64,000 bases of DNA from Thermoanaerobaculales bacterium. GTDB lineage: Bacteria > Acidobacteriota > Thermoanaerobaculia > Thermoanaerobaculales > Sulfomarinibacteraceae. The DNA is taken from positions 1,265-65,264 of the forward strand of contig JALOLD010000008.1 in assembly GCA_025456145.1 (NCBI GenBank), read 5' to 3'. This document shows positions 1,777 to 49,762 of this stretch, one piece after another. The notes beneath the pieces are model-generated. The model had not been told where the DNA came from and searched no databases. It was given only the letters and a program-made list of their open reading frames with translations. Numbering within the stretch: position 1 is the first letter of the stretch; every line of letters begins with the position of its first letter. The translations under genes and the position numbers were made by a program.

Positions 1777-4700
1777 ATGAAGCTCAAGCTCTCGTTGTGC
1801 GCAGTCGTCGTGCTCTCGATCGGTTTCTCGGTCCCGCTTGCCGCCCAGTGCGGCGACCCGGTCGGAGACTGGGGCTATGGTCCGACCACCGCCGCCGACG
1901 GCGAGGGGACGATCGCCGCCTACGGCAGCGGCCGGGTGCTGCAGGTGGCCCGACTCGCGGACCCGGCGGCGCCGGTGCCCATCGGCTCGCTGGCCATGCC
2001 GGGCGAGGTCGAGGACGTCGTGGTGACCGGGCCCTGGGCCTTCGTCGCGGCGTCGCTGGGCGGGCTGGTGGTCGTCGACCTGACCACTCCCGCTCGGCCC
2101 GAGATCGCGGCGGTGGTCGATACCTCAGGGTCGATGCGGAGCGTCGTCGTCACGGGGACCCGGGCCTTCGCGGTCGACAGTGTCGAGGGGCTGATCATCC
2201 TCGACGTCGCCGAGCCGGCCCTGCCGGAGCGGCTGGCGAGCCTGGAGCTCAGCGGGAGCCCGTGGGACGTCGCGGTGCACGGCACCCTCGCCTACGTCGC
2301 CGAGCAGTACACCGGGCTCCGGGTGATCGACATCGCCGACCCCGCCGACCCGGTGTTGGTCGCGACCCTCGAGGGTCTGGACCACCCGCGTCGGATCGCC
2401 GTCACCGAGGACGGGTCGATGGTGTACGTCACGAACTTCTTCGAGGGCTTCCACATCGTCGACGTGTCGGACCACCTCGCCCCGGAGGAGGTGGATCTGG
2501 TCGGGATCCAGGACTACACCCTCGATCTCGAGATCGACGGCGACTCCCTTTTCGTCGCCAACCGGGGCAACGGCCTGAGGGTCTACGACCTCGCCGACCC
2601 GGCGGCGCCGGTCGAGGTCGCCCGGGTGGACCAAGACGGCGAGTGCCAGAGCGTGTCGGTGCGGGACGGCCTCGCCTACCTCGGCAACTATGACGCCGGG
2701 CTTCGGGTCGTCGACGTGAGCGTGCCCGCGGACTCCGAGGAGGTCGGCTTTATCGACGGTCACCCCGAGTCGAAGGGCGTCGCCGTCCAGGGCGGTCTGG
2801 CCTATCTCCCGGGAGGCGGGCGGCAGACAATCGTCGACCTCGCCCGGCCCGACCAGCCGAGCGAGGTCTCGGTGACCGATGCTCCGGGCTACCTCCGCCG
2901 GGCGGTGGTCGACGATCGCTACATCTACGCGGCCGATGGGACCGGCGGGCTCCGGGTGATCGACATCGCCGATCCCGCGCATCCCGAGACCGTCGGCTTC
3001 GTCGACTCGCCGGACGCCATCGACGTGGTCAAGGAGGGCGACACGGTCTTCCTCGCGACCTACGACGACGGGGTGCGGGTGATCGACGTCTCGACCCCGA
3101 CCGCGCCGACCATCCTCGGCAGCCTGGAGGCTTTCCGCACCGACTTCATGGCCTACGCGGGGGGTGTGCTCTTCGTTCCCGAGTACAACGTCGGCGTCCA
3201 CCTCGTGGATGTCACCGACCCGGCGGCGCCGACCGAGGTCGGGCTGATCGATGGCATCAACCCGAACGGCCGACCCGAGGTCGCCGGGGACATCCTGTTC
3301 GTCACCGACACGGTGGCCGGCATCCGGGTCTACGACATCGCCAACCCGCGGGCCCCGGTCGAGATCGGGAGCATCGCGGAGCCCCGTTACGGGTTCGGGA
3401 TGGCGGCGATCGGCCATCTGCTCTTGGTCGCGACGATCTACGACGGCTACTTCGTCTACGACGTCTCGGACCCGACGGCGGCGGTCGAGGTGGCGGCGGG
3501 TCCGCTGGCCACGACGGCCGAGGGAGAGGTCAGCGCCGAGGGCACCCTGGCGCTGGTCGCCGAGGTCTACGGCGGAGCCGAGATCTTCGACCTCGGTCCC
3601 TGCCTCACCGAGCCTCCGGCGGCCGACTTCCTGTGGCGACCGACGAGCCCCGAGGCGGGCCGCGCCGTCCGGCTGACCGACACCTCGATCGGCGCCATCG
3701 CGACCTGGCAGTGGAGCTTCGGCGACGGCGGTTCGAGCAGCGAGCGGAACCCGAGCCACGTCTGGGCCGAGCCCGGCGACTACGAGGTCAGCCTGATGGT
3801 GACCGGGCCCTACGGCAGCCAGACCGCGGTCCGGACGGTCACGGTGGCGCCCCGGTCGGGGGGCGTCCCACCGATCACCGATCCCGGCGAGCACGTCTGG
3901 GTGATCGCCGCCGCCGCGCACGCCCGCGGGCTCGCCGAGACTCGGTGGGTGACCGATGTCGTCCTCCACAACCCGGGAGGCGACGCCGCCCAGGCCCACC
4001 TCTGGTTCATGAAGGCCGGTCAGGGCAACCTCGGCGCCGAGGGCGAGCCGGTGACGGTGGCGGCGGGAGGATCGCTGCTGATCGAGGACGTCGTGCTCGG
4101 GCTCTTCGGCCAGGACGAGACCTCGGGCGCCCTGCTGATCGGCGCCGACCAGCCGTTGTTGGTGACCTCTCGAACCTACAACGACGCGGCGTCGGGGACC
4201 TATGGTCAGTTCATTCCCGGTCGCGAGCTGGCGGGGGCGGTCGGCAGCGACGAGACGGTCCGTCTCGTCCAGCTCACCCGATCGGCGGACTTCCGGACCA
4301 ACCTCGGCGTCGCCAACCCGACCGGCGACACGGTCGTGGTCGATGTCGAGCTGGTCCGCGCCGACGGGGCCCCGCTCGCGACCCGAACGCTCACCGTCCC
4401 GGCCTACGGTCATCTCCAACGGACCGACATCTTCGGCGCCGATGTCGATGACGCATTGGCGGTGGTCAGCTCGGCGACGCCGGGGGCGGCCTACTTCCCA
4501 TACGCCTCGGTGGTCGACAACCGGACCGGCGACCCGATGATGGTCGAGCCGATCCCGCCTGGCGGCGAGCTGGTCGTCGCCGCCGCGGCCCACGTCGGCG
4601 GGCTGGAAGGCACCGACTGGCGGACCGATCTCGAGGTCTGCAACTTCGACCCCGACATCGCCGATCTCGAGGTCGCGATGCTGGTGAGCGACCAGGCGAA

Positions 4701-5332: not shown

Positions 5333-8300
5333 TCAGCGCGGTCGCGAGATCCTCGCGGACAGCTCGTCGATCTCCCGCTGGATCAGCGGGTTGAGCCGGG
5401 AGGCCTGGTCGAGGCGGGTCCTCGCCGCCCGGAACAGCTCGTCGCGGCGGGCCGGGTCCGACTCGGCCTCGACGATCAGCAGCCCGGCATCGGTGACCAA
5501 CGCCGAGGCCAGCGAGGGGTTGCGGGCCAGGGCTTCGTAGACCAGGCGGCGGCCGCGTCGGACCTCGGCCGCAACCGGCTCGCCCCGGAGCAGCGCCGCC
5601 TCGGCCCGCCAGCGGGCGACCTCGGCCGCGCTCTGGTAGGCGATCGGGTTCTGCGGGTTGACCTCGAGCCCGCGCCGGGCCGCGCGCTCGGCGTCCCGGA
5701 GCTCGCGCTCGCCCGACCGGCCGTTGGCCATCGCCCAGCGGGCGGCGATGACCTCGGCCGCCACCAGCTCGGGGTAGGCGAAGGAGATGTTGGGGTTGAG
5801 CTCGAGGGCGCGGGCGAGGTCGGACCGTGCCGCCTGCACCGCGTCGGTCGGGTCGCGGCCGGCCTCGAGCTCGACCAGGGCGAGGGTGCGCCAGGCGAGG
5901 CCCCGGTTGGCGTGGGCGTAGTGGTAGTTCGGGTTGCGCTCGATCGCCCGGTCGAAGGAGGAGATCGCCCCGGCGAGGGTCGCGAAGGGCGACGCGCCGG
6001 TACGGTGCTCGAAGACCGCGGCGCGCCAGCGGGCGATCCCCGCGTTGTTGTGGGCGTTGGCATAGCGGGGCTCGAGCTCGGTCGCCCGCCGGAAGGCCTC
6101 GAGGGCGCGGTCGAGCGAGCTCCTCGGGTCGAGCCCGACGCTCATCTCGTACTTCGCGGTGCGCTCCCAGGCGTAGCCGAGGTCGTCGTATGACAGCACC
6201 GAGGTCGGGTCGAGATCGACCGCCCGCTGGAGGCTCTCGATGGCCCGGCGGAGCTCGGGCTGCGGGTCGAGCCCCCGGTCCTGCCGGTGCTGGGCGACGA
6301 CCACCAGGGTTCCCCCGAGCGTCGCATGGGCGACGGCGCTCTCGGGCTCGATCTCGATCGCGCGCTCGGCGGCCTGGATCGCGTTGTCGAGGTAGGGGAC
6401 CGGGTCCTCTCCGCGGTCGTTGGCGAGGTCGGCGCGCATCCAGTGGAGACGGGCGAGCCGTTCGTGGACGCCGGCACGGTTCGGGTCGATCGCCACCGCC
6501 CGGTCGCAGGCCGCGACCGCGCGGGCGAAGGCGCCCTCCGCGGTGACGCCCCGCCGGCCCTCGACCTCCATGACCAGCGTCCACCGGCCGCAGTCGCCCT
6601 CCTGGATCGCCGGGTCGGAGCGGGCGATGTCGGCGGCCGCCTCGTAGGCGGCGCCGGCGCGGGAGAACGCGGCCATTGCGCCGTCGTAGTCGCCCCCGAG
6701 GGCGAGCTCGGTACCCATCTCGAGGTGGATGTCGGCGCCGAGCTTGGCGGCCTCGTACAGCCACTCGGCGTTTCCGGCGGCCTGGTCGGCCTTGGCGAGC
6801 GCGGTCTCGAGGTCGCCGCCGTAGTAGGCGATGAGACCCTCGACATAGGCCGGCTCCTCGATCCCGAGACCGCTCGACCGGCGCAGCAGGGCGAGGGCCT
6901 CGTCGCGCAGCTCGCGTTCGATCTGGCTGACCCGGGCGGCGCGCAGCTCGGGGTCGGCGATGCGACGGGCGAGGCGGAGCTCGCGCTCGTAGAGCCGGCC
7001 GAGCACCAGACCGAGCGAGGACGCCACCCCCGGCGAGTCGTACCCGACGGCGAGGGCGAGGCGGAGGTGCTCCTCGGCCTCGTCGAGGTTCTCGAGGATC
7101 AGGTGGCCACGGCCGAGGGCGTAGTGGCCGGGGCCGAAGGCGATCTCGCCGCCCGCCGCCATCTCGTTGCGGATCGCGTCCATCCGGGCGAGGATCGACC
7201 GCCGCTCGGACGACCGGTCGTGGAGGGGCATCATCGCCGCCACCCGGGCCAGGCTCTCGATCTCCTTGGCCTGCCCGACGAAGTGCTCGGCGACCGTCGC
7301 CCGCCTGCGACCCTCGATCTCGGCGCGGATGCCGAGCGCCGCGAGGATGACCATGATCCCGGCCGCCGCCACCGCGACTGCGGTGAGCACCTTGTGCTTG
7401 CGGATCTTCTTGGAGACCTTGTAGAGCAGGCTCGCGCGACGCGCCTGGATCGGTTCGCCGGCGAGGAACCGCTCGAGGTCCTCGGCGACCTCGCGGGCGG
7501 TGGCATAGCGGCGATCCGGCTCCTTCTCGAGGCACTTGAGGATGATCGTCTCGAGATCGACCGGGACGTCGGCGTTGAGCCGGTGGGGCGGCTCCGGCTC
7601 GCGCTCGGTGACCCCGGTGATGATCTCGGGGTAGCCGCCCTCGTAGGGCGACTTGCCGGTGACGAACCAGTACAGGGTGGCGCCGACGCCGTACACATCG
7701 GTCCGCCAGTCGAGCTTGGAGGTCTCGCCGCGGACCTGCTCGGGGGCGCAGAAGGCCGGGGTCCCGAGCACCATCCCGGTCACCGTCAGGTCGTGGCCCT
7801 CGATGTCGCGGGCGATGCCGAAGTCGACGATGAACGGTCGCCAGCCCTCGTCCGGCTGGTGCTCGACGAGGATGTTGCCCGGCTTGATGTCGCGGTGGAT
7901 GAGCCCGGCGAGGTGGGCGGCGTGGAGGGCCTCGGCCACCGCCCGCATGATCTGGACCTTCTGGCCCAGCGACAGCAGGTCGGTGATCTGCTTGAGCGAG
8001 CCGCCAGCGACGTACTGCATCGCGATGTACGAGTGGCCCTGGACCTCGCCGACCTCATAGACCGGGCAGACGTTGTCGTGGTCGATCCTGGCCTGGGCCT
8101 GGGCCTCGCGGGTGAAGCGCTCGATCAGCTCCGGGTCGTCTCGCCGGAGAAACTTGAGGGCGACGTAGCGGCCGAGCCTCGGGTCGCGGGCCTTGAAGAC
8201 GTCGCCCATGCCGCCGCGACCGATGAACTCCTCGATCTCGTAGCGGTCCCAGTCGGTCACCGGGAAGCGCTCGAAGGGGTCGGCGCCGCCGGCGCCCGGC

Positions 8301-10478: not shown

Positions 10479-10586
10479 GCGTCGCGACGTCACAACCACG
10501 AAGGCACGAAGGCACGAAGGCATCGCACACGAATCCTCGGAACCTCGTGAGTGCTTCGTGTCTTGGTGGTTGTGATGCTGCGACGC
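10479..10586. repeat. family-A palindromic element (copy A1), arms made of GAAGGCAC octamer repeats
   Basis: Left end GCGTCGCGACGTCACAACCAC(GAAGGCAC)x3 then GAAGGCATCGCACACGAA. Right end is the imperfect reverse complement (..GTGCTTCGTGTCTTGGTGGTTGTGATGCTGCGACGC). It fills the whole gap between two convergent stop codons (10476 and 10588). Confidence 0.85.
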
Positions 10587-10587
10587 C

Positions 10588-11613
10588 TCAACAGATCCGC
10601 GGGAGATCCGTACCGCTGAGCATGTCGAGGGGTCGGATGCTGCCGATCTCGGTCTCGAGGACCACCGGGATGTCGCCGTCGGCCGCTGTCTCGACCCGGG
10701 CGAAGACCGCCGCGTCACGGCCCTCCGGGTGATCCCGGAAGGCCTCGAGGGCGCGGTCGGCCTGCTCGCCCGGGACCCAGGCGAGGACCCGGCCCTCGCA
10801 GGCCAGCGCGAGCGGCTCGAGGCCCAGCACCTCGCACACCGCACGGACCTCCGGCCGGATCGGCAGGGTGGTCTCGGTGAGCACCATCCGCAGGCCGCTC
10901 CTGCCCGCGACCTCGTTGCACACGGTGAGCACGCCTCCCCGGGTCGGGTCGTGCATCGCGTGGATCTCGACCCCGGCGGCGAAGACCGACTCGATGAGGC
11001 CGGTCAGCGGCGCGCAGTCCGAGCGCAGGCCGGCGGCGTCGAGGCCGTGCCGGGCGGCCATGATCGTCGCGCCGTGGTCGCCGAGCGGTCCCGAGGCGAT
11101 GACGACGTCGCCGGGCGCGATCCGAGCGTCGGAGATCTCGCGGCCGGGCGGTACCACGCCGAGACCCGCGGTGACGGCGTAGATCCGGTCGCCCTTGCCG
11201 CGGGGTACCACCTTGGTGTCGCCGGCGACGATCTGGACCCCGGCCTCGGCGGCGGCGCGGGCGGCGCCGTCGGCGCACCGACGCAGCAGCTCGCCGTCGG
11301 CGCCCTCCTCGAGGATCAGACCCCAGGTCAGCCAGAGCGGGCGCGCTCCGGCGACCGAGAGGTCGTTGACCGTGCCGCAGACGCTGAGATAGCCGAGATC
11401 GCCCCCCGCGAAGACCGGCGGGTCGACGACGAAGCCGTCGGTGGTCAGCGCCGGGCGGCCCGGGGGCAGCTCGGGGAGCACCGCGGCATCGGTCAGGGTG
11501 GCGAGAAAGGGGTTGTCGAGCGCCGGGAGAAAGGTGCCGGCGACGAGCTCGTGGGTCAGCCGTCCCCCCGAGCCGTGGGCGAGCAGGAGGCGGTCCGGGG
11601 TGCGGCGCTTCAC
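10588..11613 (-). CDS. hypE: [NiFe] hydrogenase maturation protein HypE
   Basis: AIR-synthase-like HypE sequence ending in the conserved C-terminal ...GTDLPRIC. GTG start overlaps the hypD stop (GTGA). Confidence 0.9.
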   Translation of the reverse strand: MKRRTPDRLLLAHGSGGRLTHELVAGTFLPALDNPFLATLTDAAVLPELPPGRPALTTDGFVVDPPVFAGGDLGYLSVCGTVNDLSVAGARPLWLTWGLILEEGADGELLRRCADGAARAAAEAGVQIVAGDTKVVPRGKGDRIYAVTAGLGVVPPGREISDARIAPGDVVIASGPLGDHGATIMAARHGLDAAGLRSDCAPLTGLIESVFAAGVEIHAMHDPTRGGVLTVCNEVAGRSGLRMVLTETTLPIRPEVRAVCEVLGLEPLALACEGRVLAWVPGEQADRALEAFRDHPEGRDAAVFARVETAADGDIPVVLETEIGSIRPLDMLSGTDLPRIC

Positions 11614-12716
11614 CGGGTCACCCCGGTCAGCCGCTCGTGCCGGTACCAGGCCGCACAGGTGCCCTCGGCGGAGACCATGCAGGCGCCGACCGGCGTCGCG
11701 GGCTGGCAGGCGGTGGCGAAAAGAGGACATTCCGGCGGGTCGATGACCCCGCGCAGGACGTCGCCGCAGGCGCACCCGGCCGGCTCGTGGGGCGGCGGGA
11801 GCTCGACCGGGATGAGCGAGGCGTCGCGGTGGGCGAAGGCCGGGCGGAGCCCGAGGCCCGAGCCCGGGATCTCGCCGAAGCCCCGCCAGCTCGTCGCGAC
11901 CGGCTCGAAGAAGCGCTCGACGAGCCGCGCGGCGACCGGGTTTCCCGACGCCGAGACGACGCGACCGTAGAGGTTGGCGATCTCGGCCCGCCCCTCGCCG
12001 ACCTGGCGGAGCAGGTCCGCGACGCCCCGCATCACGTCGGCCGGAGCGAAGCCGACCACCGCACCCGGAACGCCGTGGTCCTCGGCGAGGAAGCGGAAGC
12101 ACTCCCACCCGGTGAGGACCGAGACGTGACCGGGGAGCAGGAAGCCGTCGACCTCGAGCTCGGCGTCCTCGACGAGGGCCCGCATCGGCGGCGGCATGAC
12201 CTTGTTGCCGGGGAGGATGAGGAAGTTGCCGACCCCGGTCTGCTCGGCCTCGGCAAGCGCCGCGGCGATGGTCGGCGCGGTGGTCTCGAAGCCGACGGCG
12301 AGGAAGACGATTCGGCGGGCCGGGTTGGCGCGCGCCCGCTCGAGGGCGTCGCGCGGCGAGTAGACGATCTCGATCGGCTTGCCCTCGGCGTGTGCCCGCT
12401 CGAGGCTCGAGAGGCTCGACGGCACCCGCATCAGATCGCCGAAGGTGCAGACCGTGACGTCGGAGAGATCGGCGAGAGCGAGCGCCCGGTCGAGGTAGTC
12501 GACGGGGGTGACGCAGACCGGACAGCCCGGCCCGGAGATCAACCGGACGCCGTCCGGGAGCATCCGGCGCAGCCCGGCAGCAGCGACCGCGTGGGTGTGG
12601 GTGCCGCAGACCTCCATCAGGGTGACCTTCCGGCCGACCGTCCGGGAGAGCTCGACGATCTCGCGGAGCAGCCCGGCGATCGCCTTGGGGTCGCGGAGCT
12701 CGCGCGCCTCGCTCAC
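11610..12716 (-). CDS. hypD: [NiFe] hydrogenase maturation protein HypD
   Basis: MEVCGTHTH, GPGCPVCVTP, GFETTAP motifs. 368 aa. GTG start overlaps the hypC stop. Confidence 0.9.
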   Translation of the reverse strand: MSEARELRDPKAIAGLLREIVELSRTVGRKVTLMEVCGTHTHAVAAAGLRRMLPDGVRLISGPGCPVCVTPVDYLDRALALADLSDVTVCTFGDLMRVPSSLSSLERAHAEGKPIEIVYSPRDALERARANPARRIVFLAVGFETTAPTIAAALAEAEQTGVGNFLILPGNKVMPPPMRALVEDAELEVDGFLLPGHVSVLTGWECFRFLAEDHGVPGAVVGFAPADVMRGVADLLRQVGEGRAEIANLYGRVVSASGNPVAARLVERFFEPVATSWRGFGEIPGSGLGLRPAFAHRDASLIPVELPPPHEPAGCACGDVLRGVIDPPECPLFATACQPATPVGACMVSAEGTCAAWYRHERLTGVTR

Positions 12717-12940
12717 AGGTCCGCCATGTTGTCGGCGTACTGACGGAGCAGGGCCAGCGTCTCGGCCGCCTCGTCGGCGTTGACCGCACCGATCGCGTAG
12801 CCGGCGTGGATGAGCACGTGCTCGCCGACCTCGGCCTCGGGCAGGAGCATCAACGAAACCGTCCGGCGGACGCCGTCCAGCTCGACGACGCCCTCGAGCT
12901 CGTTGCGTTCGGTCAGCAGCATCGGAATCGCAAGACACAT
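12713..12940 (-). CDS. hypC: [NiFe] hydrogenase assembly chaperone HypC
   Basis: Canonical N-terminus MCLAIP. 75 aa. Confidence 0.9.
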   Translation of the reverse strand: MCLAIPMLLTERNELEGVVELDGVRRTVSLMLLPEAEVGEHVLIHAGYAIGAVNADEAAETLALLRQYADNMADL

Positions 12941-13043: not shown

Positions 13044-13169
13044 TTGATGAATGATGAATGATGAAATCAACGCATGGTGCGTGGCGGCGTGCGCTCGGAA
13101 CCGGGCACGTCGCACGTGCCGGTTGAACAGACGCCACCAAGCCGCCCCTCATCATTCATCATTCAACAC
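13044..13169. repeat. family-B palindromic element (copy B1), arms made of TGATGAA heptamer repeats
   Basis: Left arm TTGATGAATGATGAATGATGAAA. Right arm CTCATCATTCATCATTCAACAC. Inner hairpin CCGGGCACGT-CGC-ACGTGCCGG. It lies between hypC and hypF and ends 1 nt from the hypF stop. Confidence 0.8.
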
Positions 13170-18262: not shown

Positions 18263-18540
18263 GGCTACCCGGACCGTGCCTATCCGGATCGCTCAGGTTC
18301 TGACCGATCCCGATCCCGATCCCGATGCGACGTCCGGAAATCCGTCGCAACCACGAAGACACCAAGACACGAAGGCGAGCGCGAAGGAGCTGGTGACGCG
18401 GGCCTCCCGCCCGCAGCTCGGCCATCGACTGGATCGAGATGCCGACGGCCGGGGCGCGCGTGAGTCGGGATCGGGAACGGGATCGGGAACGAAAGCACCC
18501 CCACCCTGACTCAAGGGGATAGGTATAGTCCGGGCTAGCC
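18263..18540. repeat. composite three-layer palindromic element (includes a solo family-A arm)
   Basis: Outer IR GGCTACCCGGACCGTGCCTATCC (18263-18285) / GGATAGGTATAGTCCGGGCTAGCC (18517-18540). Middle arms (CCGATC)x3 at 18304-18327 versus GGGATCGGGAACGGGATCGGGAAC at 18467-18491. Internal CCGTCGCAACCACGAAGACACCAAGACACGAAGG at 18342-18375 is a family-A left arm. Confidence 0.75.
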
Positions 18541-19506: not shown

Positions 19507-19732
19507 GGTAAAGAAGTGAGAAGGTGAGAAGGTGAAAAGGTGAAAAGGATAGGAGGTCAGGTAGTTAGACGTGAGACGTGAGACGTAAGACGACGGACGA
19601 CCAGATCGTGGGAGCCAGACGTCTAACGTCTCACGTCTCACGTCTCACGTCCTTCGTCTTCCAGCGAGCGAAGCGAGCGCTGACCTTCTCACTTTCTGAC
19701 CTTCTCACCTTCTCACCCCCTCACTCTTCACC
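19507..19732. repeat. nested double palindrome: outer arms (GTGARAAG)n, inner arms (GACGTGA)n
   Basis: Outer left GTGAGAAGGTGAGAAGGTGAAAAGGTGAAAAGG (19517-19548) versus outer right CCTTCTCACTTTCTGACCTTCTCACCTTCTCAC (19684-19716). Inner left AGACGTGAGACGTGAGACGTAAGACG (19567-19592) versus inner right CGTCTAACGTCTCACGTCTCACGTCTCACGTC (19620-19651). Confidence 0.85.
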
Positions 19733-27231: not shown

Positions 27232-27255
27232 GATCGTCCTTCAATCGACCTCGAC

Positions 27256-27281
27256 GCCGGGCCTTTGGGCCCGGCGTTTTT
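27256..27281 (+). terminator. Rho-independent terminator of hppA
   Basis: GCCGGGCC-TTTG-GGCCCGGC followed by GTTTTT, 25 nt after the hppA stop. Confidence 0.75.
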
Positions 27282-27287
27282 CGTCTC

Positions 27288-27347
27288 CCGCGTCCGAGTC
27301 CGCGTCCGCGTCCGCGTCCGAATCCGCCTCCGAATCCGCCCCCGACG
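27288..27347. repeat. hexamer-phased array (CCGNNT)x10: outer-left arm of the cassette
   Basis: CCGCGT CCGAGT CCGCGT CCGCGT CCGCGT CCGAAT CCGCCT CCGAAT CCGCCC CCGACG. This is the reverse complement of the array at 30305-30340. Confidence 0.8.
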
Positions 27348-27382
27348 AGGCCGACCCACCGCCGCCGACTTCGTCGGCGGCT

Positions 27383-27566
27383 CTAGCCCGGACTATTCAT
27401 GAGCTATCTGCTGCGGCCAACGATGCATCCGCGTCAGCCGCGTTTTCTCACCTCGGGGTGCTCGACGTACCGTCAAGTACGCCTCCGCGCCCCGAGGTGA
27501 GAAAACGCGACTGCCATCGGCGCCTCGTTGCCCTCGCGACGAAACCTCATGAATAGTCCGGGCTAG
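27383..27566. repeat. 184-bp palindromic element with two nested perfect inverted repeats
   Basis: 21-bp perfect IR CTAGCCCGGACTATTCATGAG (27383-27403) / CTCATGAATAGTCCGGGCTAG (27546-27566). 20-bp perfect IR 27439-27458 / 27490-27509 (CGCGTTTTCTCACCTCGGGG). The terminus motif TAGCCCGGACTAT is shared with the 18263-18540 element. Confidence 0.85.
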
Positions 27567-27745
27567 CGTCTCCGTCCACGGAGGCCATCGAGCGCGGCGC
27601 TCGCTGTCGTCCGCGGCCGAAGCCGCGCCGCGGCTGGCGCCGCGCCAGTGGGTCTCGCGCGACTAGTCGGTACGGGGTACATCCGAAGCTCATCGGCGCT
27701 CGGCCCGCCCCCACCCCTCCACCCACCCGCCCTCAGAAATCCGCA

Positions 27746-27892
27746 CGGGGTCGGACCCCGTCACGGATTTCTGAAGGGATGAGAGCTCAGGACTCGTGCT
27801 TCGACGGCACTGAACGATTCGGCGCGTGTCCTTCCAGAGCAAGGTCTTCGGGCGGGGTCGGACCCCGTCACGGATTTCTGAAGGGATGAGAG
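27746..27892. repeat. two 40-bp direct repeats (107-bp period); the first is embedded in a 42-bp hairpin
   Basis: CGGGGTCGGACCCCGTCACGGATTTCTGAAGGGATGAGAG occurs at 27746-27785 and 27853-27892. Copy 1 is preceded by TCAGAAATCCGCA, which pairs with CACGGATTTCTGA. Confidence 0.7.
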
Positions 27893-27922
27893 TCCAGGGC
27901 GTGCGACTCGGTATGACCATCA

Positions 27923-27946
27923 AGACGTCTAGAAGAGGGGTATAAT
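27923..27946 (+). promoter_or_regulatory. candidate toxin-antitoxin promoter/operator
   Basis: Perfect -10 TATAAT (27941-27946), 24 nt before the antitoxin ATG. Palindromes AGACGTCT (27923-27930) and TCTAGA (27928-27933) sit where a -35/operator would lie. Confidence 0.4.
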
Positions 27947-27970
27947 CATGACGGCTTCTGGGGGTGGAGG

Positions 27971-28222
27971 ATGCGGCCGACAAACACCAAGAAGGTCACG
28001 ATCTCGATGCCGCGCGGACTCATCCTGTTCGCAGATCAGATGGCCGACGCGCTCGGGCTGACCCGGAGCGGGTTCATTGCCGCGACCCTCGAAAGGGCGC
28101 GAGAGAACGAGCTTGAACGGCTGGGCGCCGAGGGCTACAGGTTCTACTCAGAGGAATCGAGGGAGTTCGCCGCTGCAAGCGAGGCCGCGGTGGCGGAGGC
28201 GATGGAAGATGACTATCGCTAG
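27971..28222 (+). CDS. ribbon-helix-helix (CopG/MazE-like) antitoxin
   Basis: 83 aa. N-terminal KKVTISMPRGLILFADQMA fits an RHH beta-strand plus helix. Acidic C-terminus. Overlaps the toxin start by 14 nt. Confidence 0.75.
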   Translation: MRPTNTKKVTISMPRGLILFADQMADALGLTRSGFIAATLERARENELERLGAEGYRFYSEESREFAAASEAAVAEAMEDDYR

Positions 28223-28586
28223 GGGCGAGATCCACTGGGTCGAGTTCGATCCCGTCAAGGGCAGCGAGCAGGACGGACTTCGCCCAGCCCTCGTGATACA
28301 GAACGATGTCGGCAACCGGTTCAGCCCGACGACGGTCGTGGCGGCGATCACGAGGACGCTTCCCCCGAAGCCCTACCCGTTTGTCGTCCTCATCGAGCCT
28401 GAGGAGAGCGGTCTGCCCGACCGCTCCGTCGTCAACTGCTCCCAGGTGGCGACGATCCAGTCGACGGGAGCGGCGTCGCGATTCCGACCGCCTCCCGGCG
28501 AGTCGGATCTCCGGCCGATCGGCATGCTCGGCGACGCCACGATGGAGCGGGTCGCGGCGGCTCTGCGGTACAACCTGGGGATCTGA
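28209..28586 (+). CDS. mazF: MazF/PemK-family endoribonuclease toxin
   Basis: RGEIHWVEFDPVKGSEQDGLRPALVIQND, PTTVVAAITR, VVNCSQVATI: typical PemK fold motifs. Confidence 0.85.
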   Translation: MTIARGEIHWVEFDPVKGSEQDGLRPALVIQNDVGNRFSPTTVVAAITRTLPPKPYPFVVLIEPEESGLPDRSVVNCSQVATIQSTGAASRFRPPPGESDLRPIGMLGDATMERVAAALRYNLGI

Positions 28587-28674
28587 GCAGGGGCAAGGGC
28601 AAGGGCGACATCCGTCGCAGTGGCAGAAGCAGAGGCAGCACCAGCGGCAGAGACGGGGACAGGTGCCGTGGCCG
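28587..28674. repeat. hexamer-phased array (GCANNG-like, about 15 units): inner-left arm
   Basis: GCAGGG GCAAGG GCAAGG GCGACA TCCGTC GCAGTG GCAGAA GCAGAG GCAGCA CCAGCG GCAGAG ... It fills the entire mazF-methyltransferase gap. GCAGTG is the reverse complement of the CACTGC unit at 30107-30304. Confidence 0.7.
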
Positions 28675-29547
28675 CTATTGACGCCGTCGCCGTCCGGTCA
28701 GATCGTGGACGGCGCCATCCTCGTCGAGGTAGTAGGGGACTTCGGGGTCAAATGGCGTGTCGTGGATCCGGCCGTCGAGCCTCCGGTACTTGGCGGCCAG
28801 ATCGTTGCGGACCGCCGTCGCGCGGACGAACCCTCCACCGGGTCTGGAGATCGCCGAGTCGACCCGGAGCTCGGCCTCTTCTAGGGCCGTCTGGAGCGCG
28901 CGCATGTTCGGTGCGAAGCAGTTGGTGAAGTCGCCGTTGAGGCTGGCCCCCGGATAGGCCTGCCAGAGCGGGATGTCGATGAGCGCTGGATTGAGCGCCT
29001 CGAGGGTCGTCACCGCACCGTCCGGGAGGACGACGTGCTCGTCGATGAGAAACGTCGCCACGTACAGCTCGGCGCCGGGTTTCATGACCGAGCGGATCGA
29101 ATCGAGGGCGGCGAGCGGTTTTCGGAGGTGGTAGAGAACGCCGAGGAAGAGCACTCGGTCGAATCGGCCGTGCGTTTCCGGATCGAGGTTGTAGACGATG
29201 TCGACCAGATAGGCGGCATCGCTGCCCAAGATCTCGGCGGCAGTGGCAAACCCCGTTGCCGTCGCCTCGACGAAGTCCATCGCGGTGACCTCGGCGCCGC
29301 GTCGTTCGAGCTCGAACGTGAAGTACCCGTCCGAGCAGCCGATGTCGAGGGCTCGCACACCGTGAAGTCGTGCCGGCAACCCGAGCTCGTCGAGGAGCGG
29401 CATCTTCTGCCGATTGGAGTCGTCACCCGGGGTGATGACTCCCGGAGCGAGCTCGATCTCGTGCCACCAGCGGCCGCGGGCGGCGATCCGCCGCCGGATC
29501 TCCTCGGGGTCGGTGATTCGCGGGGGGTACGGCATGGCTTCGAACAC
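28675..29547 (-). CDS. class I SAM-dependent methyltransferase (DUF1698/Methyltransf_9-like N-terminal WxHxIEL motif)
   Basis: WWHEIELAPGVITPG, then the SAM motif I VRALDIGCSDGYFTFEL, and an acidic residue after beta-2 (VTAMDF). Confidence 0.8.
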   Translation of the reverse strand: MFEAMPYPPRITDPEEIRRRIAARGRWWHEIELAPGVITPGDDSNRQKMPLLDELGLPARLHGVRALDIGCSDGYFTFELERRGAEVTAMDFVEATATGFATAAEILGSDAAYLVDIVYNLDPETHGRFDRVLFLGVLYHLRKPLAALDSIRSVMKPGAELYVATFLIDEHVVLPDGAVTTLEALNPALIDIPLWQAYPGASLNGDFTNCFAPNMRALQTALEEAELRVDSAISRPGGGFVRATAVRNDLAAKYRRLDGRIHDTPFDPEVPYYLDEDGAVHDLTGRRRRQ

Positions 29548-29572
29548 GCATACGGTCGCAGGCGGGCCGGTG

Positions 29573-29941
29573 TCACTGACGCATCATTCGCCAGGTCATG
29601 GCACGGACCTCGTCGAAGAGGGCCAGGGCGGACGATGCTCGGTTCGTCGTCACAGCTCCCGCTCCAATGAGAAGTCGAAGATGTGTGTCGACCTCCTTCG
29701 CGGATCCGTACGCGATGCGGTAGTGGTGCACGCGATCCCGGCCGGACCGCCCGGCGCCTTCGGCGAGGTTTGCCGCCACCGAGGATGCCGACCGGATCAC
29801 CTGATCCGCCAGACTCTTGAGCGGCGCGGGCACCTTGACAACCACCGCGTTCGCGATGGCTGCGGCCTCCACGGCCTTCGAGTGGGCGATGAAGCTGCTG
29901 GTTGGTTGCGGTCCGCGCATGGTCACCTCCGGGTGGTTCAT
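29573..29941 (-). CDS. four-helix-bundle protein (23S rRNA intervening-sequence protein family)
   Basis: LADQVIRSASSVAANLAEGAGR...RVHHYRIAYGSAKEVDTHLRL is the family signature. Start is uncertain: ATG 29941 chosen, while the ORF extends to 30007 through the hairpin. Confidence 0.7.
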   Translation of the reverse strand: MNHPEVTMRGPQPTSSFIAHSKAVEAAAIANAVVVKVPAPLKSLADQVIRSASSVAANLAEGAGRSGRDRVHHYRIAYGSAKEVDTHLRLLIGAGAVTTNRASSALALFDEVRAMTWRMMRQ

Positions 29942-29952
29942 GCCCTCCCCCC

Positions 29953-30034
29953 AGCCGATGAGCCGAACGCGGTCAAGGGGTCGCCCGCCGCGGGCGATGC
30001 ACTTCACCCCTTGACCGCGTTCGGCTCATCGGCT
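29953..30034. repeat. 28/29-bp perfect inverted repeat (long hairpin) at the 5' end of the four-helix-bundle gene
   Basis: AGCCGATGAGCCGAACGCGGTCAAGGGG (29953-29980) / CCCCTTGACCGCGTTCGGCTCATCGGCT (30007-30034), with about a 26-nt loop. Confidence 0.85.
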
Positions 30035-30106
30035 ACTCGTGTCGTCGGAACCACCCGGAGTGACCACGCGTGGCCGCGACCACGGCAACTCCGTCCCGAT
30101 CACCGG

Positions 30107-30304
30107 CACTGTTGCTGCCCCTGGCGCTCTTGCTGTCACTGTCTCTGCTACTGCCACTGCCACTGCCACTGCCACTGCTACTGCCACTGCCACTGCCACT
30201 GTCTCTTTCACTGTCTCTGCTACTGCCACTGCCACTGCCACTGCCACTGTCTCTGTCACTGTCTCTGCCACTGTCACTGCCGCTGATGCTGTCTGTGTCT
30301 CTGC
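30107..30304. repeat. hexamer-phased array (33 units, CACTGC/CTCTGC/TACTGC/CACTGT): inner-right arm
   Basis: Uninterrupted 6-nt phase for 198 bp. Reverse complement of the 28587-28674 array. Confidence 0.85.
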
Positions 30305-30340
30305 GTTCGGACTCGGACGCGGACGCGGACGCGGACGCGG
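30305..30340. repeat. hexamer-phased array GTTCGG ACTCGG (ACGCGG)x4: outer-right arm
   Basis: In phase with the preceding array. ACGCGG and ACTCGG are the exact reverse complements of CCGCGT and CCGAGT at 27288-27347. Confidence 0.8.
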
Positions 30341-30364
30341 GTTTTTCGTACCGGCAAGCCGGCA

Positions 30365-30393
30365 CAAAAAAGCCCCCCGGTTTCCCGGGGGGT
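30365..30393 (-). terminator. Rho-independent terminator of the apr-qmo-sat operon
   Basis: Minus strand: CCCCCCGG-GAAA-CCGGGGGG followed by CTTTTTTG, about 37 nt after the sat stop. Confidence 0.75.
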
Positions 30394-30429: not shown

Positions 30430-31695
30430 TCACTTCTTCACGTTGCCGGTGGCGGCGCCGTGGAGCTTGACCTCGACCTTCTCCTCGAGGTTGTCGTAGT
30501 ACTCCTTGAGGACCGCGATCACCTCGGGCTTCGAGAACTCGGCCGGGACCGGCTTGCCCTCGCTCATGAGCTTGCGCAGCAGGGTGCCGGAGAGGAGGAG
30601 TCGGGAGCCGCCCTGGTACTTGCCGTTGTCGTCGATCACGGCCTTGGACTCGTGCGGGCAGGTCTTCATCGAGGCCATCGTGCCGCAGTCGTAGCAGTAG
30701 AAGGTCCAGTCCATGCACAGAGGCTTGAGCTGGAGCGCGTCGGACGGGATCTCGAGGAAGATCTTCTGGGCGTCGAACGGCCCGTAGTAGTCACCGACGC
30801 CGGCATGGTCGCGGCCGACGATGAGGTGCGAGCAGCCGTAGTTCTGGCGGAAGACGGCGTGGAGCAGAGCCTCGCGCGGCCCGGCATAGCGCATGTCGAG
30901 GGGGTAGCCGGCCATCGCCACGCGTTCCTTGCGGAAGTACTTGTCGACTAACGCGTTGATCGCCTTGACCCGGACGTCGGCCGGGATGTCACCGGGCTTG
31001 AGCTTGCCGACGAGCTGGTGGATGTAGACTCCGTCACAGACCTCGATGGCGACCCACGCCAGGTAAGCGTGCGAGCCGTGCATCGGGTTGCGGAGCTGGA
31101 GGGCGGCGACAGTCGACCAACCCCGCTCCTCGAACATCTTGCGCGATTCGGCCGGGCGCTGGTAGAGACCCTCGAACTGCTTGGGGAAGTACGACTCGGA
31201 CAGGACCTTCACCGGGCCGGCGAGGTTGACGTCCTTCTGCTCCATGACCATCTTGACGCCGGGATGCTCGACGTCGGTCGTCTTGTAGACCTTCTGACAC
31301 TCGTGCGCCTTGTCGATGGTGTACTTCTCGGTCACCGTCATGGTCGCCATGAACTCGTCGTGCTCGGGGTCGTAAAGCGCGACTTCCTCACCGATCTTGA
31401 TCGAGTCGGCGAGCGCCTTGTCGGCGGAGAGGGTGATCGGGATGGGCCAGAACAACCCGTTCTTCGAGGGCATCTTCATCTCGTCGACGACGCCCTTCCA
31501 GTCGGCTTTGCCCATGAAGCCTTCGAGCGGGGTGAAGCCGCCGATGCCGAGCATGATGAGGTCGCCGGTCTCGCGGCTGGTCAGCGGCACCTTCTTCAGC
31601 TTCTTCGCCTTGTCGAGCTCCTTGGCGCGCGCCGGGCCTTCGAGGAGCAGTGGTTTCAGGGTCGGACTTCCATGCGGGGGAACGAGCTGACTCAT
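30430..31695 (-). CDS. sat: sulfate adenylyltransferase (ATP sulfurylase), dissimilatory-type length
   Basis: [35 protein letters not shown]. 421 aa, no APS-kinase domain. Confidence 0.92.
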
Positions 31696-48025: not shown

Positions 48026-48175
48026 CGTCGCAACCACCAAGACACGAAGTCACAAAGGCATCGCACACGAAGGGTTCGAATCCTCATCACAGCGATCGCG
48101 GTTGCCCGCAGTCGCCTGATGATCATCCGGTTCTTCGTGATTTCTTCGTGTCTTCGTGTCTTGGTGGTTGCGACG
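48026..48175. repeat. family-A palindromic element (copy A3) with 24-bp perfect terminal inverted repeats
   Basis: CGTCGCAACCACCAAGACACGAAG (48026-48049) / CTTCGTGTCTTGGTGGTTGCGACG (48152-48175). Internal GGCATCGCACACGAAGG is shared with A1 and A4. Lies between the convergent DASS and pepP stops. Confidence 0.9.
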
Positions 48176-49610: not shown

Positions 49611-49762
49611 CGTCACAACCACGAAGGCACGAAGGCACGAAGACATCGCACACCAAGAGGTCGGTATCGGATCTCGAGGACCGCGGCACGCCGGGGTCCT
49701 AGAAAGCCGAAGCCGGCTCGTGGCGATCGTATCGAGTCGTGGTGTCGTGGTGGGTGCGACGG
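49611..49762. repeat. family-A palindromic element (copy A4), degenerate right arm
   Basis: CGTCACAACCAC(GAAGGCAC)x2 GAAGACATCGCACACC on the left. GTCGTGGTGTCGTGGTGGGTGCGACGG on the right. Confidence 0.75.

Follow-up and report, generated by a model that had tools for sequence, protein, structure and literature searches.

Intervening sequences of 23S rRNA genes, known from Coxiella, Leptospira and other bacteria, encode an S23p protein of the four-helix-bundle family PF05635/TIGR02436 and are regarded as selfish. In Coxiella, two to three tandem GACAGAT heptamers, variable in number between strains, lie upstream of the S23p open reading frame (ORF), and the ends of the element form a 28-bp stem that is cut by RNase III (PMC4990558). 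Short tandem repeats in an inverted arrangement are known from Xanthomonas, in which paired inverted heptamer arrays use one unit (GGGAATC) genome-wide (PMC4692102). Here we describe a block of approximately 3 kb located between the genes hppA and sat of a Thermoanaerobaculales bacterium (Acidobacteriota; assembly GCA_025456145.1, contig JALOLD010000008.1), in which two pairs of inverted hexamer arrays are associated with a toxin-antitoxin pair, a methyltransferase gene and a gene of this same four-helix-bundle family. The stretch of contig analysed (64,000 nt) is referred to as the window and its positions are used throughout; loci used for comparison are designated by L numbers.

The block is best explained, at a probability that we put at roughly 0.55, as a pocket of accessory genes conserved across a clade between the convergent hppA and sat terminators, with arrays of two origins, rather than as one mobile cassette. 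A preliminary description had proposed a single cassette-forming or mobilisable 3-kb structure. That proposal is not supported, because the relative L089 carries the methyltransferase and mazEF genes essentially without hexamer arrays and because unpaired arrays occur elsewhere; these two are also resident in relatives. On the pocket reading, the outer (CCGCGT)n/(ACGCGG)n arrays would be repeats of the pocket edge, whose unit recurs at internal gene junctions in relatives, and the large inner array would belong to the four-helix-bundle unit, giving the two pairs different origins. In the window lineage, the arms of a compact hairpin seen in relatives would have come to stand 1.5 and 3 kb apart after local rearrangement. 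Repeated junction elements could supply the homology for such rearrangements, a swap of gene order being one example, and the arrays would grow and shrink by slippage. In read-through RNA the arms may form long stems, possible substrates of RNase III as in the 23S rRNA intervening sequences. The features of the block are as follows:

27253-27278, + strand: intrinsic terminator hairpin of hppA; its T-tail runs into the left copy of GTTTTTCGT, and its junction with the array is orthologous in L088
27276-27284, + strand: left copy of the 9-nt direct repeat GTTTTTCGT, doubling as the hppA terminator tail and separated from the array by CTC (3 nt)
27288-27347, + strand: outer-left array of about ten CCGNNT units, with core (CCGCGT)
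27383-27566, strand-neutral: 184-nt palindromic element with perfect 21-nt ends (CTAGCCCGGACTATTCATGAG) at 27383 and 27566
27746-27791 and 27853-27898, + strand: 46-nt repeat with a hairpin inside, present twice ahead of (upstream of) the mazE-like gene and conserved in L153/L154
27971-28222, + strand: antitoxin-like ORF of 83 aa, weak HicB-like/ribbon-helix-helix match; relatives 65-75% identical
28209-28586, + strand: PemK/MazF-family toxin of 125 aa; same-locus relatives 78-86% identical
28587-28674, + strand: inner-left degenerate hexamer array (GCANNG)
28675-29535, - strand: class I S-adenosylmethionine (SAM) methyltransferase of 286 aa (DUF1698/CmoB-like, TIGR04290-like)
29573-29941, - strand: PF05635/TIGR02436 four-helix-bundle (S23p/Avd-like) gene
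29913-30075, - strand: two-tier leader hairpin of the four-helix-bundle gene
30107-30304, - strand: inner-right array of about 33 units, CACTGC-like as read on the + strand
30305-30340, + strand: outer-right array GTTCGG ACTCGG (ACGCGG)x4
30341-30349, + strand: right copy of GTTTTTCGT, abutting the array and forming the 5' arm of a small hairpin
30373-30392, - strand: intrinsic terminator hairpin of sat

Approximately 1.7 Mb of related sequence was inspected. The true relatives of the window were found to be L087, L088 and L089, which are fully syntenic with it and share qmoB (87-90% identity), hppA (79-86%) and the hydrogenase subunits (87-92%; hynS 87-91%). Choosing relatives by Sat similarity, by which just two of 80 loci keep hppA beside sat, was misleading because the sat gene of the window (30430-31695) appears to be a xenolog that replaced the earlier gene in place. 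It is 41-44% identical to sat of L087, L088 and L089 and 92% identical to that of a more distant lineage (L001/L028 compared; qmoB there 72-77%). From approximately 15 nt past the sat stop codon, terminator included, the sequence is still homologous to L089.

Both the methyltransferase (74-80% identity) and mazEF (70-86%) are present in the sat-hppA gap of these three relatives, and likewise in that of the short contigs L090-L093. In L141, mazEF is accompanied by a fragment of a methyltransferase that is more divergent (63% over the portion present), and in L095 sat is followed by the methyltransferase. The gene order is sat-methyltransferase-mazFE-hppA in L087, L089 and L092 and sat-mazFE-methyltransferase-hppA in L088 and L141, where gene orientations are the same as in the other relatives. 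The four-helix-bundle gene is missing from the gap of close relatives. A comparison of syntenic relatives, proposed earlier as a way to reveal an empty site or different cargo between the same arrays, revealed no empty site and no further copy of the block: in every close relative the corresponding site is occupied, with the methyltransferase and mazEF present throughout. Within the window, no second copy of the arrays or of the cargo was found. By sequence comparison, the methyltransferase and mazEF are old residents of the gap in all close relatives.

The arrays of these relatives do not consistently bracket genes, as the cassette proposal had it, but lie upstream of the methyltransferase start in L087, L088, L094 and L095. 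In L087, CCGCGA CCGCGA and a GCAGNG array follow the sat terminator hairpins, after which come an element of 250 nt and then (CTGTCN)n and (CGGACG)2.5; L095 is arranged in the same way with a partial 250-nt element. In relatives CCGCGA CCGCGA is the shorter counterpart of the outer-right array of the window, at the same position by the sat terminator; such counterparts of the outer arrays adjoin the sat terminator hairpins of all relatives. In both L087 and L095 the two arms are seen together as a compact nested hairpin of the form (CCGCGN)(GCAGNG)-250-nt repeat element-(CNCTGC)(CGGACG), directly upstream of the methyltransferase gene, which lies outside it. The L087 arrays stop 1-3 nt before the methyltransferase ATG, and in L095 an extra (CGGCCA)n array intervenes. 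For L094, of which the right arm alone was examined, (CACTGC)3 and (CGGACG)2.5 lie approximately 50 nt upstream of that start. L088 has three (CGGACG)n stretches, all oriented alike and each following one of three copies of the 250-nt element; the stretch by the hppA terminator marks a junction orthologous to that of the window. L089 carries the methyltransferase, mazEF and 250-nt elements, yet has essentially no hexamer arrays.

The multi-hairpin element of approximately 250 nt is located at 4275-4537, 5420-5690 and 6944-7173 of L088 and was also identified in L087, L089, L092, L095, L141, L157, L158 and L167. It stands at every gene junction of the sat-hppA pocket of the relatives, always in one orientation. 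The window lacks it, and no Rfam family matches it significantly; comparison of the relatives with Rfam gave spurious sub-threshold matches of microRNA type on a repeat hairpin and on one copy of the element. The three direct copies in L088 would suffice to explain the swap of gene order by homologous recombination.

Hexamer arrays were observed to end from a few to approximately 40 nt before the methyltransferase start in L087 (5986-5999), L088 (5984-5998), L092 (754-802) and L095 (740-781), with the same placement in L118 (5947-5961), L123 (1910-1924) and L143 (5944-5961). Distant methyltransferase homologs (64-74% identity) have (CGTCGA)n before their start, with no sat, hppA or mazF matches nearby. 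This placement may be a regulatory or contingency feature. Variable-number tracts directly upstream of a structured leader or a start codon are a trait of simple sequence repeat contingency loci: heptamer repeats accompany an RNase III-targeted element of the 5' untranslated region in Haemophilus (PMC12721329), and TAACTGA repeats end beside start codons in Beggiatoaceae (PMC4679880). The (CGGACG)n arrays of the relatives, which stop 1-3 nt before the methyltransferase ATG, are similar in this respect. Unlike in those loci, the units here are 6-13 nt long and differ between copies, and any regulatory effect is putative.

The extent of the arrays in the window was determined with Tandem Repeats Finder. 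The outer-left array is of CCGCGT type with a period of 6/12 (27288-27339/45), the outer-right array was called as CGGACG x5.5 with 96% matches (30308-30340), the inner-right array as CTGCCA x25.5 with 82% matches and a 36-nt higher-order periodicity (30133-30304), and the inner-left array as degenerate repeats at 28587-28606 and 28617-28651. Inverted pairing of the outer arrays was borne out, as the arms (27287-27322 and 30306-30341; 36 nt) are 94% complementary. Using blastn against the whole window, the partner of each array was its unique top match (E of 1.6e-9 for the outer and 2e-8 for the inner pair), the next-best matches having an E of 0.03 or worse. The motif (CCGCGT)3, with two mismatches allowed, has one forward and one reverse occurrence in the 64 kb. 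The inner arrays are likewise an inverted pair, with arms complementary at 59 nt/75% or 88 nt/67%, but the 15 units ascribed to the inner-left array were a generous count, as a clear period-6 signal is restricted to approximately 28614-28652.

That the arrays or their pairing result from low-complexity misassembly or chance similarity is very improbable. Contigs of other assemblies do stop at palindromes (L083 at ~27440 and L084 at ~30041), L082 has an 11-nt deletion (27439-27449) within the 184-nt palindromic element, and array length in the strain-level contig L153 is unlike that of the window. Against this, the block is identical or nearly identical in five other assemblies (L081-L085) and 95-97% identical in two independent Logan contigs of strain level (L153/L154), homologous arrays are present in relatives from separate samples, and chance pairing is unlikely at E values of ~1e-8 to 1e-9. 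Since several assemblies and strain-level contigs share it, the arrangement is real and not the assembly artefact whose possibility had been raised at the outset; exact array copy numbers are uncertain.

The four-helix-bundle protein matches PF05635 at 59.4 bits (cut-off 33.8) and TIGR02436 at 62.9 bits (cut-off 24), with a weak match to PDB entry 2gsc. The likely start of its ORF is the second ATG at 29920, which has GGAGG before it. More than 3,000 close homologs (65% identity or above) were found. The best of these outside this population (88%) is encoded between ldh and a protease gene, on a contig whose bin was assigned to Methylomirabilota. This contig is 84% identical to the window at the nucleotide level over 618 nt, in a match that starts within a (GCAGTG/GCAGCG)n array, spans the leader and stops at the 3' end of the ORF, and it carries a second, direct (GCAGTG)n array downstream of the gene. 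Further units neighbour trpE and mfd (L157), efflux-related and epimerase genes (L158), ABC transporter genes (L161), and hemA and sdh (L167); L165 is a variant of L161 that shares the downstream genes and differs in upstream flank and array. This unit is the sole piece of the block shown in unrelated contexts (five others, one binned to another phylum) and is apparently selfish.

The order of parts within the unit was found to be constant: a tandem array comes first, followed by a stretch complementary to the Shine-Dalgarno/start region of the ORF (GGAGGTGACCATG), then by a palindrome and lastly by the ORF itself. The arrays consist of a 6-, 12- or 13-nt repeat that differs from copy to copy, and the palindrome has arms of 27-29 nt (TAGCCG.TGA...GTCAAGGG / CCCTTGAC...TCA.CGGCT). 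In the window, the outer stem of the leader pairs 30050-30075 with the Shine-Dalgarno/start region (29913-29941), and inside it lies a perfect palindrome whose arms are 29 nt long (29953-30034). RNAalifold gave 48 consensus pairs for six leaders, 15 of them with compensatory double changes. The leader hairpin is predicted to sequester the ribosome-binding site and start codon.

Repeat tracts vary widely around this constant order. For one identical protein, the tract differs between samples, which show a 13-mer in two or three copies, additional hexamers or an unrelated (CCGGAG)19, and the array measures approximately 198 nt in the window versus approximately 80 nt in strain L153. In L165 (1-240) the tract is wholly different, consisting of (CCGGAG)x19, (CCCGTT)n and (CTCTCC)n, with the protein identical across L161-L166; its CCGGAG unit is complementary to part of the anti-Shine-Dalgarno arm. 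The leader hairpin of approximately 180 nt (29903-30082) is inverted in the 95%-identical strain L153 (297-475; minus-strand match 96.7%), the orientation in the window being that of other family members. This inversion is probably a real polymorphism, because the arms are shorter than the k-mer of the assembler.

The inner-right (CACTGC)n array belongs to the four-helix-bundle unit as its 5' repeat tract of variable number. We read the inner-left array as a diverged, inverted partial copy of that tract, the match extending beyond the repetitive part into non-repetitive junction bases (GGGGACAGGTGCCGTGG), via GGGGAC(A/C)GGTGC...CGTGG. For the arrays upstream of the other four-helix-bundle units, no inverted partner was found, and arrays of this type therefore do occur unpaired in other genomes. 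In L157, L158 and L167, the 250-nt element lies directly downstream of the four-helix-bundle gene, in the same orientation as at the pocket junctions; thus, the structures of array plus 250-nt element in the pockets of relatives could be gene-less derivatives of four-helix-bundle units. Two other possibilities were tried for this unit and rejected. The arrays are not coding repeats or an upstream ORF, since the frame that ends at the conserved TAG at the palindrome base is open just in the window and L155 and not in L157, L158, L161 and L167. Carriage of the leader by phages was not supported, the 24 motif matches in viral contigs being close to a rough chance estimate, with none beside a four-helix-bundle gene.

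With respect to the 23S rRNA intervening sequences, the closest described thing, the likeness of the unit extends beyond the shared protein family: tandem repeats of variable number lie just upstream of the ORF (GACAGAT in Coxiella, GACAGT/GCAGTG-type here), and, in this one locus, the ORF has complementary flanking arms that may form a long stem. The window unit is not a member of that class because it lies outside any rRNA gene, between sat and the methyltransferase gene, and not in helix 25 or 45 of a 23S rRNA gene; no Rfam family, rRNA included, was matched in the 64-kb window at gathering thresholds. The unit also differs in its array of up to 33 units, in its conserved leader sequestering the ribosome-binding site, and in an inverted partner that lies beyond a second gene and is missing from other copies of the unit. 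PF05635 also takes in Avd of diversity-generating retroelements (PMC10053308). Unlike in these, no reverse transcriptase was found among the ORFs of the block or beside the other copies of the unit.

In a different explanation of the arms, which has its parallel in the 23S rRNA intervening sequences, those of the inner pair would anneal around the message of the four-helix-bundle and methyltransferase genes, and those of the outer pair around the pocket, in transcripts reading through from the strongly expressed sat or hppA, and cleavage by RNase III would separate or tune the accessory transcripts. Predicted duplexes are far more stable than shuffled controls (approximately -75 kcal/mol for the outer pair versus -33 +/- 4, and -107 to -111 kcal/mol for the inner pair versus -70 +/- 6), and the Coxiella element combines the same gene family and strain-variable upstream repeats with its 28-bp terminal stem (PMC4990558). 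Among compact hairpins of these genomes, moreover, the strand running with the upstream gene folds 8-12 kcal/mol better in three of the four informative cases. However, the duplex energies of the long-range pairs are alike on both strands, the inner pair is just 67-75% complementary, and arm positions vary among relatives. The inner arrays are able to pair around the four-helix-bundle ORF, but they enclose the methyltransferase gene as well, and the arrays of the other units have no partner. We regard this explanation as quite unlikely.

Certain points weigh against the pocket reading. The exact path from the compact form of the relatives to the arrangement of the window could not be reconstructed; either the window lineage may have acquired the four-helix-bundle unit or the relatives may have lost it; and the RNA-stem and slippage steps are inferred. 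Differences in copy number come from short-read assemblies, which can collapse repeats, and, with approximately 1.7 Mb of related sequence inspected, this genome may hold another copy of the block at a different site. Finally, the outer arrays stand between two copies of GTTTTTCGT, a 9-nt direct repeat that is unique in the window and resembles a target-site duplication.

This last point raises the possibility that the pocket began when an element ending in inverted (CCGCGT)n-type repeats was inserted between the convergent terminators and made a 9-bp target duplication, the element having since become immobile and internally rearranged. Just two copies of GTTTTTCGT are present in the 64 kb, in direct orientation and each bordering one outer array on its outer side, against 0.07 expected by chance, and joining of the flanks would give a plausible compact double-terminator empty site. 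The termini, at 36 nt and 94% complementarity, the accessory-type cargo with its lower third-position GC (0.80-0.83 versus 0.90-0.96) and the swap of gene order among relatives also fit such an origin. Terminal inverted repeats are present at both ends of the block, but as tandem hexamers and not as a unique recognition sequence. On the other hand, 3 nt separate one copy of GTTTTTCGT from its array, and each copy is a T-run of a terminator or hairpin structure, the right one being the 5' arm of a small hairpin (30341-30371) flanked by a T-run and an A-run. A similar tail (GTTTTCGT) follows another terminator at ~49790, perhaps leaving approximately 4 of the 9 bases unexplained, and the exact repeat is not shared by relatives. 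All close relatives are occupied at the site, neither an empty site nor a second copy having been found; no transposase or recombinase is encoded in the block; and in L087 and L095 what lies between these inverted units is the 250-nt element, complete in the former and partial in the latter, and no genes. An ancient transposon-like origin of the pocket is possible, if unlikely, and a 3-kb cassette that is currently mobilisable is not supported.

Compact hairpins with short-repeat arms were found elsewhere in the window, in agreement with the earlier remark that palindromic elements without cargo share the design of inverted tandem-repeat arms. These include a (TGATGAA)n/(TCATCAT)n hairpin at 13045-13165, a (CCGATC)n/(GATCGG)n hairpin at 18304-18491 and a nested hairpin at 19512-19729, (AGAAGGTG)n(AGACGTG)n...(ACGTCTC)n(ACCTTCTC)n, which has its 8-mer outside and 7-mer inside, adjoins a terminator and folds 12 kcal/mol better on the strand of the upstream gene. 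Array units are locus-specific (CCGCGT, CACTGC, AGACGTG, AGAAGGTG, CCGATC and TGATGAA), the sole dispersed type being CACGAAGG. Across the window and 80 related loci, 27 of 99 short-period arrays have an inverted partner in the same locus and 13 a direct one, with a partner spacing of 10-270 nt nearly everywhere. Among these loci, the hppA-sat locus holds the only kb-scale pair (arms 1.5-3 kb apart), and an apparent second gene-enclosing pair in L026 (arrays 959 nt apart) proved to consist of distinct compact hairpins, one in each of two successive gaps. In these genomes, compact hairpins of inverted short repeats, with units that are specific to the locus, are common.

As in Xanthomonas, these are intergenic tandem units of 6-9 nt in convergent, opposite-strand pairs capable of forming stem-loops (PMC4692102), with length varying between relatives and the type of pairing kept. 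Close intergenic pairs on opposite strands, as described there, are represented here by the compact elements with their spacing of 10-270 nt, in contrast to the hppA-sat pair at 1.5-3 kb. Unlike in Xanthomonas, nearly each locus has its own unit, arrays are nested, and arms 1.5-3 kb apart enclose genes. Repetitive extragenic palindromic (REP) sequences, bacterial interspersed mosaic elements (BIMEs) and MITEs (miniature inverted-repeat transposable elements) are comparable in being extragenic, hairpin-forming and mostly situated past gene 3' ends or terminators, in recurring at successive gene junctions and in their association with local rearrangement; the multi-copy 250-nt element of the relatives and the CACGAAGG family of the window recall them further. 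Unlike these, the CCGCGT and CACTGC arrays have microsatellite-like arms and no dispersed consensus copies, no REP-associated tyrosine transposase (RAYT) or other transposase was seen, and there is no clear target duplication besides the ambiguous 9-mer. By eye, the junction repeats (a perfect 29-nt stem; 250-nt multi-hairpin elements) are unlike attC sites, no search with an attC model or for integrases having been made.

A broader proposal, which we likewise consider unlikely, is that PF05635 genes of this subfamily are the core of undescribed small selfish units outside rRNA genes. Such a unit would consist of a 5' tract of hypervariable microsatellite type, a covarying leader hairpin, invertible between strains, in which the ribosome-binding site is sequestered, and the ORF, with a 250-nt multi-hairpin 3' module added in one clade. 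Deletion derivatives (array plus 3' module) would seed nested short-repeat palindromes at gene junctions of Acidobacteriota, the arrays could be a by-product of the mechanism by which the unit is copied or inserted, and such units would have found both a graveyard and a field for recombination in the sat-hppA pocket.

A mobile cassette is not established by the mere presence of inverted repeats on both sides of accessory genes; because of the comparative data from relatives, the present case is better viewed as a long-lived pocket whose repeat arms were pulled apart. The block joins known kinds of element, namely extragenic repeat palindromes and an intervening-sequence-like four-helix-bundle unit. 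In the literature searched, coverage of which was incomplete, no account was found of Acidobacteriota palindromes with repeat arms, nor of solitary units of PF05635 type so built, and both the hairpins with locus-specific, sometimes nested, tandem-repeat arms and the cis-architecture of solitary four-helix-bundle genes (repeat tract, leader sequestering the ribosome-binding site, ORF) appear to be undescribed there. The most interesting lead lies in the four-helix-bundle unit, with its conserved architecture and its apparent mobility. This architecture links very abundant 'hypothetical' genes, of which over 3,000 close homologs were found, with the intervening sequences of 23S rRNA genes and offers a testable handle on the spread of the gene family and on the tuning of expression by repeat number.

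As to the remaining contents of the block, its accessory features were all found as first listed (palindromic element, duplicated 46-nt hairpin, mazEF-like pair, SAM methyltransferase and four-helix-bundle protein), as were its bounds, the terminator-like hairpins of hppA (27253-27278, + strand) and sat (30392-30373, - strand). The toxin carries a PemK/MazF domain (PF02452, E 2e-25), and the 83-aa antitoxin-like ORF upstream of it overlaps the toxin start by 14 nt, the pair being kept in relatives. This combination of a PemK/MazF domain with a small overlapping upstream antitoxin-like gene is that of a type II toxin-antitoxin system (mazEF/pemIK). The methyltransferase was compared in its 286-aa form, an exact look-up of a 290-aa start variant having given no match. 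None of the ORFs of the block (antitoxin-like, MazF, methyltransferase, four-helix bundle) is a transposase or recombinase. Third-position GC is 0.80-0.83 in the pocket genes (28077-30007) versus 0.90-0.96 in the flanking core genes, a low value although the methyltransferase and mazEF are long-term residents.

Members of a dispersed REP-like hairpin family built of CACGAAGG/CACGAAGA octamers (ACAACCACGAAGGCACGAAGG...) were observed in the window, mostly just past gene 3' ends, at the following positions:

10494-10575: CACGAAGG-type hairpin
18350-18375: CACGAAGG-type hairpin
48030-48170: CACGAAGG-type hairpin
49617-49760: CACGAAGG-type hairpin

The more distant loci L035 and L003 differ from the window at the gap, and their flanks are not alignable with it. 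In L003, where sat is still beside hppA, a different ORF of 312 aa fills the gap and is flanked by GCTGYC-type arrays (11590-11660 and 12830-12900) that are direct, not inverted.

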